From: Candidatus Magasanikiibacteriota bacterium
GTDB taxonomy: Bacteria > Patescibacteriota > Patescibacteriia > Magasanikbacterales > GWA2-37-8
Direction of reading: 5' to 3'
Assembly (NCBI GenBank): GCA_036744835.1
Contig: DAIOHD010000001.1
Coordinates: 208,967 to 272,966, forward strand
Length of the DNA stretch: 64,000 bases
Shown: piece after piece, positions 23,366 to 59,808 of the stretch
How positions within the stretch are numbered: the first letter of the stretch is position 1
Layout of the letters: each line of letters starts with the position of its first letter
Notes under the pieces: model-generated
Told to the model about the DNA's origin: nothing
The model's input: the letters and a program-made list of their open reading frames with translations, nothing else
Databases searched by the model: none
Made by a program: the position numbers and the translations under genes

Positions 23366-26300
23366 ATGCACAGGAGGGGAAAGTTTTTATTTTTCGCAGG
23401 GCTTATGTTTGCTCTGTTTTTTAATCTACAAAATGTATTTGCTTATGACCACAGTATTGCTCATCCGGGAATAGCTGATTTAGCGGTAAAACTTTATAAC
23501 AGTCAAAATGAAATACAAATTACGGCCCAACAAGTGGAATATATTTTACAAGGATCCAATAATGAAGATTCTCCTGTCCGCTGGTTTAACCATTTTTATG
23601 ATCCGATTTATAATATTGGGTTTAGTGATTTCGTATTTGGAGAAAAACTGGGTATTTTCCCGACCGCACCAGTTTGGCTACAAAGTCCTTATGATCAAAT
23701 ACAGTATTCAGTCGGCGATAGGAGTTGGCAAAGAGCGATAGATGATTACGCTCGTGGAGATGAAGAAAAAGCATTCTTGGGATTAGGACACGCTATCCAT
23801 CTGATATCAGACATGTCCGTACCCGCGCACACTCGCAACAGTGCTCATCCGGGAGATTCATACGAAAGTTTTGTTAAAAGTAATTGGAGTAGTATTGCCC
23901 CAAATCTCAATTATGAATTTAGAGAAATAAATAGCTTACAACAAGCTTTTACAGATTTAGCAAATTATTCCAATAATAATTTTTATTCTGACAGAACTAT
24001 TAAAAACAATAAATATAGCATTGTAAATATAATTGAAAATAATTTAATACAAAATAACAACGGCTTATTTTATAGATATTATTTTTCTAAAATAAACAAT
24101 AAACAATATAAAATTTTTGTAAATAAAAATCCTTTAAAATGGAACGATGAAGAAATTTATGAGCTTGATGATTATTTAGTACTAACCGACTATTCTCAAA
24201 CCCTCATCCCCCAAGCTGTTTCCTACAGCTCTGGTTTGATAAAATTATTTTTACAAGAAGCAGAAGCCAAAAAATCTCAATTACAATATGAAAAAATGTC
24301 TTGGTGGCAAAAAATTAATAATGTATTATTTAACGATGATTTGCCGATAGTTCGTCAAACTGTAGAAGGGTATGTAATGGAAAAAACTCTGGCCCCAGCT
24401 ATTGAATTTGGTGGAGATGTTTTGGATAAAGCCAAAGAAATCAAAGAAACAGTTGAAAAAATTGCGCAAAAAAATCAAGAACCAGAAGTTTATGAAAAAA
24501 TTATACCTGAAGCCAAAGCGGAAGAAGAAAAAACAATAATTATATCATCTACAACATTTACAACACCCACAACACTTATAACAACTACAACATCTTATTA
24601 TTCCAGTGGGGGAGGGTCATCTTATGTTCCACCAACTGTGGAACCTACTACCACACCTGAAATCAACCTTGATTTAGAAACCCCATCCCCGGAACTTTTT
24701 TTGGAATTATTTCAAACCACTACTAGTAATTTTATCACCTTGAATTTTAGCTCCAGCGAAACCTCGTCGCTACCTGTGAGTTTTGAGGGGAAACATAGCA
24801 CTTCTACTTTTTGGAATTCGCTTTTTTCTTGGACTACGTCTACGTTATATATTTTTGAAACAAATAAGAGTGGAGAATATAATTTTCGAGTGCGTGCGAT
24901 TGACGGTGTTTATAATACTTCTACTTGGACAGAAATGTCTGTCACTGTGCCACAAAGAGAGTGCATTTATAGCTATTTAACCGGGGAACAAGAAGATGAT
25001 GAGGTTGTTCTGACTCCGGATAGCAGTCCTTATCTTTTAGATTATTATTATGTATCACCCGGAAAGAAATTGATAATAGAACCTGGGACAGTAATAAAAA
25101 GTTTATCTTATGAGGATGGCGAAAATATTTTTGCTTACGCCAATTTGGATGTAGCCGGAGAATTGGAGATATTGGGCACTTCGGAAAATAAAGTGATTTT
25201 TACTTCTGTTTATGACAATAGTTTTGAAAATGAATGTTTAAATACGTTATCTTTGGCCACTTCAAGCGAACAGGTAATGGGCGGAATTTTGATAGGAGTT
25301 TTTGATACTACTGTTGATTTGAAAAATTTTGAGATGAGACAGTTTGATAGACCGCAACCCCATGTTCAGTTAGCTTCTTTTGGTGGTTTTTATAATGATT
25401 ATATTTATCCTACCAATGAATGTATTATTGTTGAAAATTCGGCTATAAATATTACCGGTGCTGTTTTTAAAGGATGCGGGGGAGAAGGAGCATTACAAAT
25501 AAAAAATTCGCAAGTTACGATAAAAAATAGCCAAATAATATCCGATTTAAACGCTTATGATAATGGTGTGGTAGTAGAAGGGGGCGATTTATTTTTGGAT
25601 ACAGTAAAAATAAGCGGTTATCGTGAATATCCTTTAAAAATTTTAGCGGAAGCAAATTTTCAGTTTATTGATTTATCTTTGGAAAATAATAGAGTTAATG
25701 CTATTTTAAACCCTGAGTTAAAAGGTGATTTAAATTTAAAAAAAGATGAAAATTTTTGGGTTTTAAATAGAGATATTTTGAATAGTTTGTCTTCGTTTAC
25801 AGTTGATCCTGGGGCAAGTTTTTATTATGAAGGAATGGATGGTATATCTTCTAACAAAAATCTATCTCTCATCGGTACGCCAGAAGATAGGATTAAAATA
25901 TATTTACCAAATATTTATGAAAGCGCCATGTCATTTAACGGTACAACAAATATTTTTAAATACGTGGATTTTGTCGGTTTGGAGCCCTATCTAAATACCG
26001 GATTGAAAGATTCATACGGAGTAGAAAATTCTTGGGGCTTAGTTTTGTCGGATTCTTACAGAAGAGAAATTTTAAATTTTAGCAAAAGACGTAGTCAGGG
26101 TTTGATAATCAGAAATGGCAATCTTGTTTTAGAAAATGTCAGATTTTTTAATAGTTTTATTCCGTGGTCTGTCGCTTTGAATTTATATAATTCTACTAGT
26201 TCTTTAAAAGAAGTTTCTTTTATTACGATTAAGCCTTATGGAGAAATTTTTTATTTGGAAGAAGCGGAAAATTTGGGTATTAACGGAGACGGCGGAATTG

Positions 26301-26518
26301 TTGATTTGGATAATGTGAATTTTGCTGATTTGTTTTGTGGTATTCATTCCGATCCGGATTATTATTATGGTTTGATAAAAACCGTAACTACCAACATGTC
26401 GGCAGGTAATTTTGAAAATGTTATTTATAATTTTGTGCCTGAAGATTTGATAATTTTTTCAGTGCCGGAGGAAGAAGTGACCTCAACACCAGAGGGTGAA
26501 GGTGGCTTGGTGGAGTAG
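23366..26518 (+). CDS. Giant secreted protein (1050 aa): zinc phospholipase-C/P1-nuclease-superfamily N-terminal domain, T/S/P linker, C-terminal beta-helix-like region
   Basis: Signal peptide; NHFYDP and HAIHLISDMSVPAH match the Zn-PLC/P1 blocks (HFWDPD and HxxxDMTxPLH); linker TTFTTPTTLITTTTSYYSSGGG. Confidence 0.55.
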   Translation: MHRRGKFLFFAGLMFALFFNLQNVFAYDHSIAHPGIADLAVKLYNSQNEIQITAQQVEYILQGSNNEDSPVRWFNHFYDPIYNIGFSDFVFGEKLGIFPTAPVWLQSPYDQIQYSVGDRSWQRAIDDYARGDEEKAFLGLGHAIHLISDMSVPAHTRNSAHPGDSYESFVKSNWSSIAPNLNYEFREINSLQQAFTDLANYSNNNFYSDRTIKNNKYSIVNIIENNLIQNNNGLFYRYYFSKINNKQYKIFVNKNPLKWNDEEIYELDDYLVLTDYSQTLIPQAVSYSSGLIKLFLQEAEAKKSQLQYEKMSWWQKINNVLFNDDLPIVRQTVEGYVMEKTLAPAIEFGGDVLDKAKEIKETVEKIAQKNQEPEVYEKIIPEAKAEEEKTIIISSTTFTTPTTLITTTTSYYSSGGGSSYVPPTVEPTTTPEINLDLETPSPELFLELFQTTTSNFITLNFSSSETSSLPVSFEGKHSTSTFWNSLFSWTTSTLYIFETNKSGEYNFRVRAIDGVYNTSTWTEMSVTVPQRECIYSYLTGEQEDDEVVLTPDSSPYLLDYYYVSPGKKLIIEPGTVIKSLSYEDGENIFAYANLDVAGELEILGTSENKVIFTSVYDNSFENECLNTLSLATSSEQVMGGILIGVFDTTVDLKNFEMRQFDRPQPHVQLASFGGFYNDYIYPTNECIIVENSAINITGAVFKGCGGEGALQIKNSQVTIKNSQIISDLNAYDNGVVVEGGDLFLDTVKISGYREYPLKILAEANFQFIDLSLENNRVNAILNPELKGDLNLKKDENFWVLNRDILNSLSSFTVDPGASFYYEGMDGISSNKNLSLIGTPEDRIKIYLPNIYESAMSFNGTTNIFKYVDFVGLEPYLNTGLKDSYGVENSWGLVLSDSYRREILNFSKRRSQGLIIRNGNLVLENVRFFNSFIPWSVALNLYNSTSSLKEVSFITIKPYGEIFYLEEAENLGINGDGGIVDLDNVNFADLFCGIHSDPDYYYGLIKTVTTNMSAGNFENVIYNFVPEDLIIFSVPEEEVTSTPEGEGGLVE

Positions 26519-26526
26519 TTTTTATC

Positions 26527-26690
26527 CCCCTCTCTTATTCAAGAGAGGGGCGAGGGGAGAGTCTAAATCCCTCCCTCTGCCCGAGAGGGAGGTTAGGAGG
26601 GAGCGGGAGAGACTCCACCCTAACCCTCCTCTTAAACAAGAGGAGGGAACTTCCCCTCTCTTATTTAAGAGAGGGGTGAGGGGAGAGTCT
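26527..26690. repeat. Array of five GC-rich polypyrimidine/polypurine hairpins (two identical 38-bp units)
   Basis: CCCCTCTCTT-ATTC-AAGAGAGGGG at 26527-26550 and CCCCTCTCTT-ATTT-AAGAGAGGGG at 26653-26676, plus CCTCCCTC/GAGGGAGG, GGAG-AGA-CTCC and CCCTCCTCTT-AAAC-AAGAGGAGGG between them. ORF 26496-26699 is an artefact of this repeat. Confidence 0.55.
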
Positions 26691-26699
26691 TTAACGTAA

Positions 26700-26733
26700 C
26701 AAAAAACTTTCGCTTACCGGCGAAAGTTTTTTG
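26700..26733. terminator. Bidirectional intrinsic terminator between the convergent 1050-aa gene and glyA
   Basis: A-run, ACTTTCGC-TTACCG-GCGAAAGT, T-run. Confidence 0.65.
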
Positions 26734-26770: not shown

Positions 26771-28018
26771 TTACTGTAGTTTCGGATAAAGTGGAAATAT
26801 TTTACTCATTTCTAAAACCTTCTTTTTAATTTCCGCCAGTTTTTCCTCATCATCTTTATTTTGTATCACTTCATCAATCCAAGAGGCTATAATTTCCATT
26901 TCTTTTTCTTTCATCCCGCGCGTAGTGAGTGCTGGAGTGCCCAAGCGAATACCGGAAGGATCCATAGCAGTTCTAGTTTCACCAGGAACCATATTTTTAT
27001 TTACTGTAATGCCGGCTTTATCCAGTGCTTTCTGCGCCTCACGCCCTGAAATATTTTTATTACTCAAATCAATCAATAATAAATGGTTATCAGTTTGACC
27101 AAAACAAATAGTATATCCCATTTTTTTAAATTCTATTTCCAACACTTTGGCGTTTTTGACAATTTGTGTTGCGTATTCTTTGAATTCCGGTTCCAGCGCT
27201 TCTTTGAACGCCACAGCTTTGGCTGCAATATTATTTTCATGAGGCCCACCTTGAAATCCCGGGAAAACGGATTTATCAATATCTTTGGCGAATTTTTCTT
27301 TACACATTATCATACCACCGCGAGGTCCGCGAAGAGTTTTGTGAGTGGTTGTGGTAACGATATCAAAATAGGGGACCGGATTTTCCATCACACCTCCGGC
27401 GATAAGTCCGGCGATATGAGCGATATCAGCCATAGTGATAGCTCCAACTTCATCAGCTATTTCTTTGATTTTTTTCCAATCAATATGACGAGAATAAGCC
27501 GAGTAGCCGGCTAAAATAATTTTGGGTTTATTTTCAATCGCCACTTTTTTTAATTCATCATAATCTATCAAACCCTCGCTGTTGGTTTTGTAACGAATGA
27601 AATTAAAAATTTTGGCCATATACGTGACCGGATGGCCATGGGTCAAATGACCCCCATGTTCCAAATCCATGCCAAGCACCGTGTCTCCTGGCTTCAATAA
27701 CGCGAAATAAACGGCTATATTAGCCGGAGCACCCGATAATGGTTGGACATTGACGTGCTCTGCCCCAAAAAGCTCCTTGGCACGGTCTATGGCGGTTTTT
27801 TCCACCTCATCCACGTGTTCACACCCGCCGTAATAACGCTTGCCAACGTAGCCCTCGCTGTACTTGTTAGTCAAAACAGAACCTAGTGCTTGTAGTACGG
27901 CCAAAGATACGAAGTTTTCCGACGGAATCATTTCCAAGCTTTCTTCTTGGCGAGCTTGTTCGTGTTTGATAGATTGGTATATTTCAGGATCAAATTGTAA
28001 TAAGTTTTGGTTATGCAT
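26771..28018 (-). CDS. glyA: Serine hydroxymethyltransferase
   Basis: Full-length SHMT pattern (PSENFVS...; HGGHLTHG; [14 protein letters not shown]). Confidence 0.9.
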
Positions 28019-28555: not shown

Positions 28556-30148
28556 TTAGAGCTTTTTAACCAAGTATGTTTCTTTTTCCTTAAACCCTAA
28601 TTTTTTGTAGTAGCCTTTTACACCTACTCCCGAAATTACCGCCAGAGTATTTATATCATTATCTTGACATATTTTTTCTGCCATCGCAACCATTTGTTTC
28701 CCAAAACCTTTGTGTTGACTATCTTTTTTGTTTTTAGTTTTTAGTTCCAATGACTGTCCATAAGTATGAAGTTCGCGAATAAAAGCAGGGAATAGACCAT
28801 TTTTATCTAAGCGCAATCGACAAAAAGCAAACACAACGTTTCTGTTTTTGTCTTCGAAACTTAGAAAGTATTCTTTTCCACCACTAGCTTCATATTTATC
28901 AATAAACAATTTAGGCTTTAAACTTTCAACTTTCAACTTTCTACTATCAACGTGTCCTATTTCCCGACAGCGTAAACAATTACATTTTAAACCGCGTTTT
29001 TTCATCTCCATCTGGATAACTTGTCTTAGATTGGTCATTTTGTTGCCAGCTTCAATATGATGAGAAGGAATATCGCGAATAAGTCGGGAGATGCGGACAT
29101 AGCGCGGGATTTTTGTTTTGACAGCAATCAGAGTTTCCAAAAGTTTTTTATCTGAATAAGGTTTATATTTTCCTTTTTTTAGCCAAGTATAAAGTTCGGA
29201 ATTTTTTACCACTGTGCAAGGATAAATTTTTATCATATCCGGACGATAATCGGGGTCGTCAAAAATTTCTAGCATCATTTTCAAATCTTTTCCCGGAGTT
29301 GATCCGGGTAGTTGTGGCATCAAATGTAAGTCAACTTTAAATCCATAAAGCTTTAATAAACGCATGGCATTTTTAATCTCCAAGGATCCATGTCCGCGTT
29401 GGATAGTTTTCAAAATTTTATCATCAATTGTTTGCGCGCCAAGTTCCACGCGGGTGCAGCCCTGTTCGCGCATTTGCCAAACAGTTTTTTCATTGATAAA
29501 ATCCGGTCTAGTTTCAAGCGTTATACCAATAATTCTATGCTTAGCTTTTTCATTCTTCTTTTGTTCAATAATCAATTGTTTTTTTAAAATATCTAACTTT
29601 TTACTTTCAGTTTTCAACTTTCTACTCGCGTTTGCTGCTTGAAAACAGCGAACGATAAACCAGTACTGGTATTGGAGGGGATAGGCATTCCAAGTTCCGC
29701 CTTTGACAATCAATTCTATTTTATCGGTCGGATGACCGTTTTTTTGCAAAGCATCGATACGGCGGACTACTTGTTCAAAAGGATCAAAATGTAATTGAAA
29801 TGCCCGCGCGGCTGCTGGCTCGTCGGAAATATAACTTTTAGGCATGTTTTTTTCATCCGGACAATAAACGCATTTTCCCGGGCAGGGGTATGATTTTGTT
29901 AAAACTGTAATTATGGAAACTCCGGATAAAGTTCGTATTGCTCGTTTGGTTAGCAGTTTTTCTAATGTCGGATTTTGCTTAATCTTGCCGTTTTTGAGTA
30001 ATTTATGATATACTGCCAGCAGGTCTGATTTTTTGGGAATGTCTTTTATGACTTTATTTACACGCAAAAAATCGCGACGAATCTGATCAAATTTGTCGTT
30101 AGTAATATTCTTTAATTTAGCTAATTTTAGAACAATCTGCTCGTTCAT
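28556..30148 (-). CDS. elp3: Elp3 homologue: radical-SAM plus C-terminal GNAT acetyltransferase (tRNA U34 carboxymethylation enzyme family)
   Basis: SYPCPGKCVYCPDE (CxxxCxxC with the Elp3-characteristic CVYCP), DPFEQVVRRIDALQKNGHPTDKIELIVKGGTW and HLMPQLPG...IKIYP...RISRLIRDIP are collinear with yeast and archaeal Elp3; GNAT block HKGFGKQ. Confidence 0.8.
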   Translation of the reverse strand: MNEQIVLKLAKLKNITNDKFDQIRRDFLRVNKVIKDIPKKSDLLAVYHKLLKNGKIKQNPTLEKLLTKRAIRTLSGVSIITVLTKSYPCPGKCVYCPDEKNMPKSYISDEPAAARAFQLHFDPFEQVVRRIDALQKNGHPTDKIELIVKGGTWNAYPLQYQYWFIVRCFQAANASRKLKTESKKLDILKKQLIIEQKKNEKAKHRIIGITLETRPDFINEKTVWQMREQGCTRVELGAQTIDDKILKTIQRGHGSLEIKNAMRLLKLYGFKVDLHLMPQLPGSTPGKDLKMMLEIFDDPDYRPDMIKIYPCTVVKNSELYTWLKKGKYKPYSDKKLLETLIAVKTKIPRYVRISRLIRDIPSHHIEAGNKMTNLRQVIQMEMKKRGLKCNCLRCREIGHVDSRKLKVESLKPKLFIDKYEASGGKEYFLSFEDKNRNVVFAFCRLRLDKNGLFPAFIRELHTYGQSLELKTKNKKDSQHKGFGKQMVAMAEKICQDNDINTLAVISGVGVKGYYKKLGFKEKETYLVKKL

Positions 30149-30215
30149 TTCTGAAAATTTAAAATTGGAAATTAATTAAAAATTGTAAAATTAAAAATTG
30201 AAAATTATTAAGATT

Positions 30216-30944
30216 ATGGTTTATAATCCCGCTCAAATTATACGCACTATTACAGCAAATTACAATACCATCGCCAAAGATTGGGATGTTTCGCGCTTTC
30301 GCCCGAGTGAAGTCAAAGTGTTGCTTTTAAAAAATACTAAACCCGGTATGGTAGTGGGGGACATTGGCTGTGGTAACGGAATAATCATTCCGGAATTGAT
30401 GAAACGAAAAATAAAAAAATACTATGGTTTGGATATTTCCTCCCAATTGATAAAAATTGCCAAAAAAAGATATGCGGAAGAAATCAAAAAAGGCCAGGTA
30501 GAATTGAAAGCTGGCAATGCTCTGAAGTTGCCGTATCAGAAAAATAAATTCGATTTGATTTTTAGTTTCGCGACTATGCATCACATACCGGGCGGTAAAA
30601 ATCATTTGAAGTTTTTACAAGAGATAAAAAGGATTCTCAAACCCGGTGGTAAGGCTATAATTGTCAATTGGAATTTACTAAGTGATGCCACTTATGATCG
30701 CTTTGATATCAAAAATGCTTTGATAAAATCGGCACAAAACGGAAACGGAGAAAGAGATGTTTATGTCGGTTGGAAAGGTACTCCGGGAGCAAATATTAGA
30801 CGTTTTATTCATATTTTTTTACCGGAAGAAATGGCCGTCTTGGCCGCAGAAGCTGGTTTTACCAAAATTAAAATTGATTATTATACTCAACTTGGAACCA
30901 AAGAGCAAAACGGCGAAGAGTTGGTGACGATTTTACAAAAGTAA
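30216..30944 (+). CDS. Trm9/ALKBH8-MTase-like class I SAM-dependent methyltransferase
   Basis: Motif I VVGDIGCGNG; LKLPYQKNKFDLIFSFATMHHIP...LQEIKRILKPGGKAIIVNWNL parallels Trm9 (LNLPHKNETFDFAISIAVVHH...LSKLRQGGQALIYCWAL). The upstream TTG at 30198 is possible. Confidence 0.55.
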   Translation: MVYNPAQIIRTITANYNTIAKDWDVSRFRPSEVKVLLLKNTKPGMVVGDIGCGNGIIIPELMKRKIKKYYGLDISSQLIKIAKKRYAEEIKKGQVELKAGNALKLPYQKNKFDLIFSFATMHHIPGGKNHLKFLQEIKRILKPGGKAIIVNWNLLSDATYDRFDIKNALIKSAQNGNGERDVYVGWKGTPGANIRRFIHIFLPEEMAVLAAEAGFTKIKIDYYTQLGTKEQNGEELVTILQK

Positions 30945-33657: not shown

Positions 33658-34536
33658 ATGATCATAGATGGTAAAAAAATAGCTGACAAATTAAACCAAA
33701 AAACGGTTGACTTGGTTAAGAAATTGAAAAAGCGAGGAATATCTCCCAAAATCGCCGTGGTTTTAGTGGGAGATTCAAAACCTTCGCAAGTTTATGTTAC
33801 GCAAAAAGAAAAACTGGCTAAAAAGCTTGGTTTTGATTTTGAATTGATAAAATTGAAAAATAAAATTACCACAATGGAATTAAAAGATAAAATCATTTCT
33901 TTGCAAAAACAAAAAAATCTTTGCGGTTTGATAGTTCAACTACCGCTCCCAAAAAAAATAAATACTTTTGAAATTTTGAATTGTTTAGATTATGAGATTG
34001 ATATTGATTGTTTGAGTGCGCATGGTTTGGGTAGGTTATATCAAGATAAAAGAGAGTTGGAACCGCCAACTGCTGGTGCAGTCATGGAAATTTTGAAAAA
34101 CCTTAAAGTAAAATTTGTTGGCAAAGACGTAGTGATTATCGGGGCGGGGATACTGGTTGGAAAACCATTGGCAACTATTTTGATGCAAGAAAGAGCAACT
34201 GTAACTGTGTGTAATAGCGCAACCAAAGATTTGAAAAAGAAATGTTTGGGAGCGGACATTATTGTGGCTGGTACTGGAGTGAGAAATTTGGTAAAAGCTA
34301 GTATGGTCAAAAAGGGCGCGATAGTGATTGATGCGGGTTTTTCTTTTGTAAATGGTAAATCCTACGGCGATGCCGATGTTACGGCTCTGGATAAAAAAGG
34401 TGTTTGGGTTACTCCAACTCCGGGAGGAGTAGGGCCGGTGACGGTGGGTAAATTGATGTTCAATGCTGCAAAGTGTGGGGAGATAAAAATAAAAAATTAC
34501 AAAAATTACAAAGATTGCAGAAATTGCAAAGGTTGA
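33658..34536 (+). CDS. folD: Methylenetetrahydrofolate dehydrogenase/cyclohydrolase
   Basis: Typical FolD N-terminus (IIDGKKIA...PKIAVVLVGDSKPSQVYV) and NAD-binding GAGILVGKP; short K/N/Y/C-rich C-terminal tail. Confidence 0.85.
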   Translation: MIIDGKKIADKLNQKTVDLVKKLKKRGISPKIAVVLVGDSKPSQVYVTQKEKLAKKLGFDFELIKLKNKITTMELKDKIISLQKQKNLCGLIVQLPLPKKINTFEILNCLDYEIDIDCLSAHGLGRLYQDKRELEPPTAGAVMEILKNLKVKFVGKDVVIIGAGILVGKPLATILMQERATVTVCNSATKDLKKKCLGADIIVAGTGVRNLVKASMVKKGAIVIDAGFSFVNGKSYGDADVTALDKKGVWVTPTPGGVGPVTVGKLMFNAAKCGEIKIKNYKNYKDCRNCKG

Positions 34537-58533: not shown

Positions 58534-59808
58534 ATGGATTTTAATACAAGCAATATAAATATTTCCGGACCGACACCGACCAAAAAAAGAGCGGGAAAAT
58601 ATTTTGGTTTATATCTATCTTTAATTTTATTTATTGTTTCTTTTGGCTTAGGGTTTTTTTCCGGACAATATTATTTTATCCATAAAAATATTATTGATGA
58701 AAACGGAGAAGTGGAACAAACAAAAGTTTTAAAATTAAATAGAATGTTAAATCATTCCGATGAGATTGAATTTGAACAATTTTGGGAAGTTTGGGATAAA
58801 ATAAAAGAAAAATATGTTAAAAAAGATGTTAAAGATGAAGATCTTTTTTATGGTGCGGTACAGGGGTTGGTTTATGCATTAGGAGACCCCTATTCTTTAT
58901 ATTTTCCACCAAAAGCTGCAGACGAATTTTCTAAAGATTTATCAGGAGAACTTGAAGGTATCGGTGCTGAAATAGGTATCAAAAATCAATTATTAACAGT
59001 AATCGCTCCGTTGGCAAACACGCCGGCAGAAAGAGCGGGATTAAGGCCTGGAGATGTTATTTTGCAAATCGGCGAAGAAATTACTTTGGGTATGGATGTT
59101 AATACTGCTGTATCAAAAATTAGAGGTAAGGCTGGTACAGAAGTTATTTTATCAGTTAATAGAAATGAATGGCTTGAACCTAAAGAAATAAAAATTGTTC
59201 GTGCTAAAATAAGTGTTCCGTCAGTTACTTTCAAGATGCAGAATAATGAAGTAGGCTATTTTAGGGTTATGCAGTTTAACGAAGATACGCAAAAACAATT
59301 TGATAAAGGAATCAAAGAACTTCAAAATCGCAGTGGTAAAAAAATAATTTTGGATTTACGAAATAATCCGGGTGGTTATTTGGACCAGGCTATTCGTATG
59401 GCTAGCGAATGGATAGAAAAAGGAGTAGTTGTCAGTGAAAAAGGAAATGATGGCAATAACAAAGAACATGAGACTACCGGTAGTGCGCGTTTACAAAATA
59501 TACAAACAGTAGTTTTGATCAACGGTGGTTCAGCCTCTGCGTCAGAGATCGTTGCCGGGGCTTTGCAAGACAATAAAAAAGCTACCATTATTGGAACAAA
59601 AACTTTTGGTAAGGGTTCAGTACAAGATTTTGAAATGTTTCCTGATGGTTCAGCACTTAAGTTGACAGTTGCTGAATGGTTTACGCCAAACGGAAGAAAT
59701 ATCAATAAAGAAGGGATAGTTCCTGATATTGAAGTGATAGAGGAATGGGATAAAGAGAAAATCGGCGAGGATGTGATGATTGATAAAGCACTCGAGTTGT
59801 TAAAATAG
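58534..59808 (+). CDS. ctpA: S41 carboxyl-terminal processing protease (PDZ plus peptidase), membrane-anchored
   Basis: PDZ (GLRPGDVILQIGEE), S41 blocks (LDLRNNPGGYL; NGGSASASEIVAGALQDN; TFGKGSVQ). Confidence 0.75.
   Translation: MDFNTSNINISGPTPTKKRAGKYFGLYLSLILFIVSFGLGFFSGQYYFIHKNIIDENGEVEQTKVLKLNRMLNHSDEIEFEQFWEVWDKIKEKYVKKDVKDEDLFYGAVQGLVYALGDPYSLYFPPKAADEFSKDLSGELEGIGAEIGIKNQLLTVIAPLANTPAERAGLRPGDVILQIGEEITLGMDVNTAVSKIRGKAGTEVILSVNRNEWLEPKEIKIVRAKISVPSVTFKMQNNEVGYFRVMQFNEDTQKQFDKGIKELQNRSGKKIILDLRNNPGGYLDQAIRMASEWIEKGVVVSEKGNDGNNKEHETTGSARLQNIQTVVLINGGSASASEIVAGALQDNKKATIIGTKTFGKGSVQDFEMFPDGSALKLTVAEWFTPNGRNINKEGIVPDIEVIEEWDKEKIGEDVMIDKALELLK

Follow-up and report, generated by a model that had tools for sequence, protein, structure and literature searches.

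A conserved Elp3 and Trm9-like methyltransferase gene pair as a probable two-step wobble-uridine modification module in a Candidate Phyla Radiation bacterium

The DNA analyzed here, a stretch of 64,000 nucleotides from contig DAIOHD010000001.1 of a Magasanikbacteria-like bacterium (hereafter the window), carries two genes that stand head to head across a short spacer (Table 1). One encodes Elp3, the synthase that carboxymethylates uridine 34 (U34) of tRNA, and the other encodes a class I S-adenosylmethionine (SAM)-dependent methyltransferase resembling Trm9, proposed here to convert 5-carboxymethyluridine (cm5U) into 5-methoxycarbonylmethyluridine (mcm5U). An initial annotation, made from the sequence alone, had singled out this pair. 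Both open reading frames (ORFs) lie at the coordinates it gave, and the gap that it put at ~65 bp measures 67 bp. Every motif it listed is present in the translations, namely GKCVYCP, HFDPFEQ, KGGTW, HLMPQLPG, MIKIYP, and RISRLIRDIP in Elp3, and DIGCGNG, LKLPYQKNKFDLIFSFATMHH, and GGKAIIVNWNL in the methyltransferase. We place the methyltransferase start at the ATG at 30216; translation could also begin at an in-frame TTG (30198), but homologues start at the ATG. Named homologues of both proteins belong to Candidatus Magasanikbacteria and other Patescibacteria, the Candidate Phyla Radiation (CPR). Both proteins also occur on a public contig of 906 kb, which points to a host genome of about one megabase. 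The spacer presumably holds the promoters of both genes. Since a consensus promoter scan returned 15 sites against 11.4 ± 3.4 expected from a shuffled background of this AT-rich DNA, which is not above background, we claim no specific promoter.

The identity of the first protein is clear. The Elp3-specific model TIGR01211 matches it at 547 bits (cutoff 350, E 3e-164) from end to end, with protein residues 15-530 aligned to model positions 12-522 of 522, so that this is an Elp3, as the initial annotation held, rather than a generic radical-SAM protein. Its best solved relative is the Elp3 of M. infernus (MinElp3, 6ia8; E 1e-119), aligned from residue 13, while the alignment to the D. mccartyi enzyme (DmcElp3, 5l7j; E 4e-109) begins only at residue 68. 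Yeast, mouse, and human Elp3 chains in the PDB match at E 1e-81 to 1e-86. The Fe-S triad C89/C93/C96 (CPGKCVYCP) aligns with the cysteines of both MinElp3 and DmcElp3 and is invariant in 16 CPR Elp3 sequences (alignment A2). In the acetyl-CoA pocket of DmcElp3, the residues that matter are K77, K193, E386, and Y441 (PMC6367351). The first three correspond to K143, K271, and E459 of the window protein, all invariant in the same 16 sequences, and the fourth corresponds to Y513. This alignment bears out the C-terminal GNAT block that had been described, even though Pfam places only Radical_SAM and Radical_SAM_C above cutoff and its stand-alone GNAT models score just under it.

The N-terminal extension of the window Elp3 is rich in Lys and Arg and is kept in CPR orthologues, with Y47 invariant. 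Judged from its sequence, this extension is of the basic type through which the Elp3 of archaea and eukaryotes binds tRNA. The idea that this Elp3 might be especially divergent was not borne out, as its match to the model and to the solved structures is that of a typical archaeal-type Elp3. By homology, the protein has everything that the synthesis of cm5U34 requires.

The strongest evidence for a functional pairing of the two genes is their linkage. Around seven homologues of the methyltransferase, 34-52% identical to the window protein, Elp3 lies immediately upstream and divergent in 7/7 cases, and the flanks beyond the pair are wholly different (MurC/MurB/SecA; uracil-DNA glycosylase/RtcB; phosphoglucomutase [PGM]/tryptophanyl-tRNA synthetase/RNase J). 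Starting instead from Elp3 in species-representative genomes, a methyltransferase of the family, or one like it, lies <2 kb away in 9 of 10 evaluable loci, in two of which it is convergent and downstream of Elp3. In a metagenome collection, likewise entered through Elp3, a relative is encoded by 536 of the first 600 pattern matches; the best 80 loci were kept, and 67 of these were evaluable (13 lacked enough flank). Counting methyltransferases at ≥100 bits, 58/67 of these loci have one: 55 divergent and adjacent, two convergent and downstream, and one at 1.7 kb; none was found in the other 9. The 55 divergent pairs are head to head with gaps of <300 bp, and the measured gaps are mostly below ~100 bp.

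Other window neighbors recur beside Elp3 far less often, with a NUDIX hydrolase in 13/64 loci and serine hydroxymethyltransferase (SHMT) in 28/80. Unbiased clustering of the ORFs at 96 loci gave Elp3 at 96, the methyltransferase at 75, SHMT at 34, NUDIX at 19, and FolD at 17. On these counts, the pair is linked far more tightly than background synteny. The pairing is therefore kept across divergent relatives whose flanking genes differ, as the initial annotation needed it to be. Its view of Elp3 as rare among bacteria is right for cultured bacteria and for the literature (PMC7663514) but not for the CPR, given the metagenome matches above.

Placing the methyltransferase itself was harder. It was correctly called a class I SAM-dependent enzyme, since Methyltransf_11 matches the 242-aa protein at E 1.5e-24 and DIGCGNG is present. 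Pfam and NCBIfam scans of this protein alone gave only generic or UbiE-like matches, and family profiles were therefore needed. The UbiE/MenG models reached at best 54-57 bits, with cutoffs of 158-420, and aligned to the core domain alone. The family is large, with 570 matches at E ≤1e-5 in a word-indexed search and at least 1,583 clusters (50% identity) at E ≤1e-30 in an exhaustive profile search of 1.84 billion representatives. All members that carry names are CPR, and among the matches listed by the exhaustive search there was no outgroup beyond the CPR family. Longer two-stretch matches that we had suspected to be eukaryotic Trm9 turned out to be CPR proteins where they were named.

Two profiles were searched against 177,635 PDB sequences: A1 (26 members, centered on the window's clade) and A3 (49 members, a sister subclade). 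The top match of both was Yarrowia lipolytica Trm9 (5cm2_Z), at 91.3 vs. 89.2 bits for the runner-up with A1 and at 112.4 vs. 88.5 bits for the next match, a 24-bit margin, with A3. The two profiles represent one family (hhalign E 1e-95), and A3 includes P0112 and P0114, both confirmed neighbors of Elp3. With UbiE/MenG cutoffs unreached and Trm9 ranked first by the family profiles, these searches do not place the enzyme with UbiE. The predicted model of the methyltransferase (predicted local distance difference test score 95) has a Rossmann-like beta-alpha pattern, and in fold searches with it many small-molecule methyltransferases score equal to or above Trm9, so that Trm9 is not singled out. 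Few IMG entries of the family (two members) carry an automatic TRM9 label; many others are labeled UbiE.

The active site offers a more specific comparison. Mutating R29, D72, H116, W145, W168, R241, Y243, or N271 of yeast Trm9 abolishes or strongly cuts activity, and H115 contributes (PMC4678810). We tied the numbering of the Trm9 chain to that of the Y. lipolytica enzyme through an offset of 35, read from the printed profile alignment. The window methyltransferase keeps six of the eight essential residues: R27, D73, H122, H123, W152, W186, and R196 are the counterparts of yeast R29, D72, H115, H116, W145, W168, and R241. Across 274 family members, DIGCGNG and D73 are invariant (D72 column, 274/274), and conservation is also high at R29 (272/274), H116 (267/274), W145 (272/274), W168 (247/274, plus 20 Phe), and R241 (259/274). 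The 56 Elp3-linked copies show a matching pattern, with the equivalents of R29, H116, W145, W168, and R241 kept in 46-56 of the 56. The HH, W, and R residues, which lie outside the SAM site, are absent from both runner-up PDB matches, 3sm3 and 1ve3, in the printed A1 alignments.

The two remaining positions vary within the family. The Y243 column holds Tyr in 78/274 members and Phe in 22/274, and the N271 column holds Asn in 157/274 and is invariant Asn in subclade A3. The full set of eight Trm9 residues is present in other Elp3-linked members, P0114 (RYYH plus the invariant Asn) among them. In the methyltransferases at four genome loci (L017, L018, L021, and L023), the N-terminal Y-N-x-I-A...S-x-T-R block is retained, as are GCGNG and WNL, while the C-terminal substrate block has diverged to "PLYYYAF" or "R.CYWW" in place of "RY.H.F". 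This divergence means that specificity may differ between CPR lineages.

From these results, we consider it probable, on the evidence of sequence, that Elp3 and the Trm9-like enzyme together make up a two-step wobble-uridine modification module of eukaryotic/archaeal type in this CPR bacterium. In the first step, which rests on strong family membership, the radical-SAM domain of the stand-alone Elp3 would cleave SAM and the KAT domain would supply an acetyl group from acetyl-CoA, leaving a carboxymethyl group on C5 of U34. The basic N-terminal extension would help tRNA binding, as in archaeal Elp3. In the second step, the Trm9-like enzyme would move a methyl group from SAM onto the carboxylate of cm5U to give mcm5U. 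Here, Arg27 and His123 may hold the carboxylate, Trp152 may stack on the base, and Trp186 and Arg196 may bind the substrate. The shared 67-bp control region would let both genes be expressed together. Archaeal Trm9 (in Haloferax), like the eukaryotic enzyme, converts Elp3-dependent cm5U to mcm5U, and the genes for Elp3 and Trm9 are reported to cluster in Sulfolobus (PMC6144793); it is by analogy that we infer mcm5U as the product of the CPR pair. The observation made in the initial annotation is thus confirmed, and its interpretation is largely supported.

The closest known counterpart is the archaeal system of Elp3 with Trm9-Trm112 (Haloferax volcanii HVO_1032/Trm112 and the Sulfolobus solfataricus cluster). 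It shares with the CPR pair a stand-alone Elp3 without Elp1/2/4/5/6, an extended basic Elp3 N-terminus (MinElp3 is the best solved match), a Trm9-type gene clustered with Elp3 (PMC6144793), and mcm5U34 as the expected product. By contrast, the host here is a CPR bacterium, two active-site positions are changed in the window's clade, and the H. volcanii Trm9 needs Trm112 for solubility and activity, whereas no Trm112 gene was found beside the pair or in the window. The eukaryotic system of Elongator (Elp1-6) with Trm9-Trm112 or ALKBH8 would use the same two chemistries in the same order. The Elp3 core domains are conserved between the two systems, Trm9 is the best PDB match of the family profile, and R29, D72, H115/116, W145, W168, and R241 are retained. 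However, the CPR pair is without accessory Elongator subunits, and its compact methyltransferase has neither the long insertion of yeast Trm9 nor the AlkB and RRM domains of ALKBH8, in addition to the changes at Y243 and N271.

Within bacteria, the reference enzyme DmcElp3 is likewise stand-alone and has identical spacing of the Fe-S motif (CPGKC.YCP) and a conserved acetyl-CoA pocket, but it lacks the N-terminal extension (PMC6367351) that is conserved in CPR Elp3. The usual bacterial route through MnmE/MnmG, which yields 5-carboxymethylaminomethyluridine or 5-aminomethyluridine, also targets C5 of U34 and also serves to tune wobble decoding. It differs in its unrelated enzymes, its cofactors (GTP, FAD, methylene-tetrahydrofolate, and glycine), and its product. 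As the initial annotation had noted, neither mnmE nor mnmG occurs among the window ORFs scanned, a scan that covered all but about ten ORFs at the 5' end. The contig is 906 kb long and the window just 64 kb of it, so this absence carries little weight.

Several observations weigh against the proposed module. Five of the nine metagenome loci without a methyltransferase belong to one Elp3 clade, in which a PGM-like gene stands in the methyltransferase's place. The loci are moreover related CPR sequences picked by similarity to the window Elp3, with a few near-duplicates, and are not phylogenetically independent. A PDB search with the single methyltransferase sequence ranks Trm9 only 13th, and in the window's own clade (profile A1) its margin over generic methyltransferases is only 2 bits. 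The likeness to Trm9 claimed in the initial annotation stands in the profile ranking and in the six essential residues kept, and fails at two positions of the window protein, where I198 replaces Y243 and E235 replaces N271. The latter Asn is the proposed uracil-recognition residue (O2/N3 reader), and its replacement by Glu is compatible with some change of specificity in the window's clade. Finally, Trm9 of eukaryotes and archaea alike depends on Trm112, yet the 64-kb window holds no Trm112-like zinc-ribbon ORF, and neither a Trm112-like gene nor any family of small ORFs recurs next to the pair across the 96 loci. In our own mapping through the A1 alignment, a weak guide, three of the six hydrophobic Trm112-contact positions of Y. 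lipolytica Trm9 correspond to Lys, Lys, and Gln of the window protein. We infer, if weakly and from sequence, that this methyltransferase probably works without a Trm112 activator.

These observations could be accommodated if the methyltransferase were coupled to Elp3 and yet catalyzed a different reaction, acting on another side-chain or base atom of an xcm5U nucleoside, on a nearby anticodon-loop nucleotide, or on a CPR-specific substrate, with a product other than mcm5U. The linkage evidence demonstrates coupling, not chemistry. The Glu and Ile at N271 and Y243 in the window's clade and the lack of a nearby Trm112, in the window as at the 96 loci, are in keeping with such a reaction, and branches of cm5U metabolism in H. 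volcanii and yeast are themselves unexplained (PMC6144793). Still, we regard it as unlikely. The family hardly varies at the residues proposed to hold the carboxylate and the methyl donor in place (R29, H115/H116, R241, and probably Y18, which is Y16 in the window protein), and since other linked members also keep all eight Trm9 residues, Trm9 chemistry is the simplest reading.

Much less likely again is a reading of the methyltransferase as a generic small-molecule or UbiE/MenG-type enzyme that sits beside Elp3 through inherited gene order without functional meaning. Database labels and the generic or UbiE-like Pfam and NCBIfam matches point that way, as do the fold searches in which small-molecule enzymes do as well as or better than Trm9. 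However, the UbiE/MenG scores of ~57 bits or less fall far below their cutoffs, Trm9-specific residues outside the SAM site are conserved, and the pair persists through complete turnover of its flanks and even through a switch to a convergent arrangement, with the next commonest neighbors 2-4 times rarer than the methyltransferase. The doubt could also be directed at Elp3, which might be a protein acetyltransferase or have another radical-SAM activity, with the methyltransferase serving that pathway. One public record does call the Magasanikbacteria orthologue "Histone acetyltransferase", and the Pfam GNAT matches are below the gathering score. Against this stand the equivalence of the whole protein to the Elp3 model and to structures already solved, the conserved Fe-S and acetyl-CoA residues and tRNA-binding N-terminus, and the finding that the activity of Elp3 from bacteria, archaea, and eukaryotes is triggered only by tRNA (PMC6367351); we give this last explanation hardly any credence.

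Around the pair, the gene for the NUDIX hydrolase lies downstream of Elp3 in the same orientation, and the two may share a transcript. NUDIX recurs beside Elp3 in several CPR lineages, including the clade without an adjacent methyltransferase, and was considered and rejected as a third component of the module because of its presence in only the minority of evaluable Elp3 loci counted above. On either side of the module are SHMT and FolD, both enzymes of folate one-carbon metabolism, which are also found near Elp3 in many CPR loci (FolD in 17/96). Because Elp3 chemistry uses no folate, this looks like conserved CPR gene order and not a functional tie. In the clade without an adjacent methyltransferase (L049, L058, L064, L076, and L094), the PGM-like gene is divergent upstream of Elp3, and the order Elp3-NUDIX-SHMT(-FolD) is kept downstream. 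Since the order at L005 is Elp3, methyltransferase, PGM, the loss in that clade looks like a lineage-specific deletion or relocation. The only two small window ORFs with paired CxxC motifs, examined as Trm112 candidates, look like ribosomal proteins L28 and L33, and small ORF clusters near the pair appear to be shadow frames within Elp3 or SHMT. Six public metagenome-assembled genome records (L013, L014, L015, L017, L021, and L022) with the CPR-type Elp3/methyltransferase/SHMT block, whose SHMT is up to 94% identical to that of the window, are titled "uncultured Gammaproteobacteria", "Bdellovibrionales", or "Candidatus Udaeobacter"; these labels are probably wrong.

Table 1. Features of the window discussed in the text, in window coordinates.
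Feature	Position	Strand	Basis or remark
Elp3, tRNA U34 carboxymethyl synthase, 530 aa	28556..30148	-	TIGR01211, PDB matches, residue alignment
Parts of Elp3			N-terminal basic extension (~residues 1-67), radical-SAM domain, C-terminal GNAT/KAT domain
Divergent intergenic region, AT-rich, 67 bp	30149..30215	.	Sequence read; between Elp3 and methyltransferase, head to head
Trm9-like methyltransferase (class I, SAM-dependent), 242 aa, proposed to methylate the carboxyl group of cm5U34 to give mcm5U34	30216..30944	+	Profiles, residues, linkage
NUDIX hydrolase, 130 aa	28115..28507	-	48 bp downstream of Elp3
SHMT	26771..28018	-	Folate one-carbon enzyme
FolD	33658..34536	+	Folate one-carbon enzyme
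ORF upstream of the convergent region	23366..26518	+	
Convergent intergenic region	26527..26733		G+C-rich hairpins
38-nt direct repeat, first copy	26527..26564		
38-nt direct repeat, second copy	26653..26690		95% identical to first copy
14-bp inverted repeat with A6/T6 flanks	26700..26733		Perfect repeat
67-aa "ORF"	26496..26699		Translation artefact
Rfam match, Rickettsia sRNA47	59356..59659	-	68 bits, gathering score 60
S41 C-terminal processing peptidase	58534..59808	+	
Large ORF, 1211 aa	18704..22339		No Pfam match
Large ORF, 761 aa	37170..39455		No Pfam match
Large ORF, 576 aa	14315..16045		No Pfam match
Large ORF, 496 aa	40503..41993		No Pfam match
Large ORF, 447 aa	55699..57042		No Pfam match

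Elsewhere in the window, the convergent intergenic region between SHMT and the ORF facing it carries G+C-rich hairpins in an otherwise AT-rich genome. A 38-nt direct repeat occurs there twice, each copy containing the palindrome CCCCTCTCTTATTYAAGAGAGGGG, which has no further copy elsewhere in the window. By eye, two further hairpin-like stretches lie between the copies. The inverted repeat at the end of this region looks like a bidirectional terminator, and the 67-aa "ORF" overlapping the region is an artefact of translating these repeats. The Rfam match to Rickettsia sRNA47 lies wholly inside, and antisense to, the S41 peptidase gene and is most likely conserved coding sequence rather than a small RNA. 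Five large ORFs have no Pfam match (E ≤1e-5 or 1e-6), which is typical of CPR genomes.

Reviews of Elongator confine bacterial Elp3 to Dehalococcoides and note that no bacterium has yet been shown to contain xcm5U (PMC7663514). Public records already name CPR Elp3 "Elp3" or "tRNA carboxymethyluridine synthase", while its partner is just a "class I SAM-dependent methyltransferase". Our literature searches returned no paper pairing Elp3 with any CPR term and none describing the bacterial gene pair, and searches on Trm9 in bacteria and on MnmE/MnmG in the CPR returned nothing relevant. The components and the pathway are thus known, whereas the tightly linked, CPR-wide bacterial pair and the functional assignment of its methyltransferase family have apparently not been described before.

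Elp3 is common in CPR bacteria and is almost always accompanied by a Trm9-type methyltransferase, and its conservation with this partner across the CPR suggests that many bacteria use a pathway thought to be almost absent from bacteria. The pairing assigns a specific predicted function to more than 1,500 sequence clusters of one family and leads us to expect wobble modification of a eukaryote-like kind across a large bacterial radiation. More tentatively, and with somewhat less than even confidence, we suggest that wobble uridines of the mcm5 type may be made in much of the CPR by an Elp3 of archaeal/eukaryotic style together with a compact, Trm112-independent Trm9. If so, it would be the first pathway to mcm5U in bacteria; in these reduced genomes it may replace MnmE/MnmG, and it may be shared with archaea through ancient transfer. 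A small, possibly Trm112-independent Trm9 and a stand-alone Elp3 would also form a convenient pair of proteins with which to reconstitute the mcm5U pathway, and whether bacteria make xcm5U becomes directly testable.

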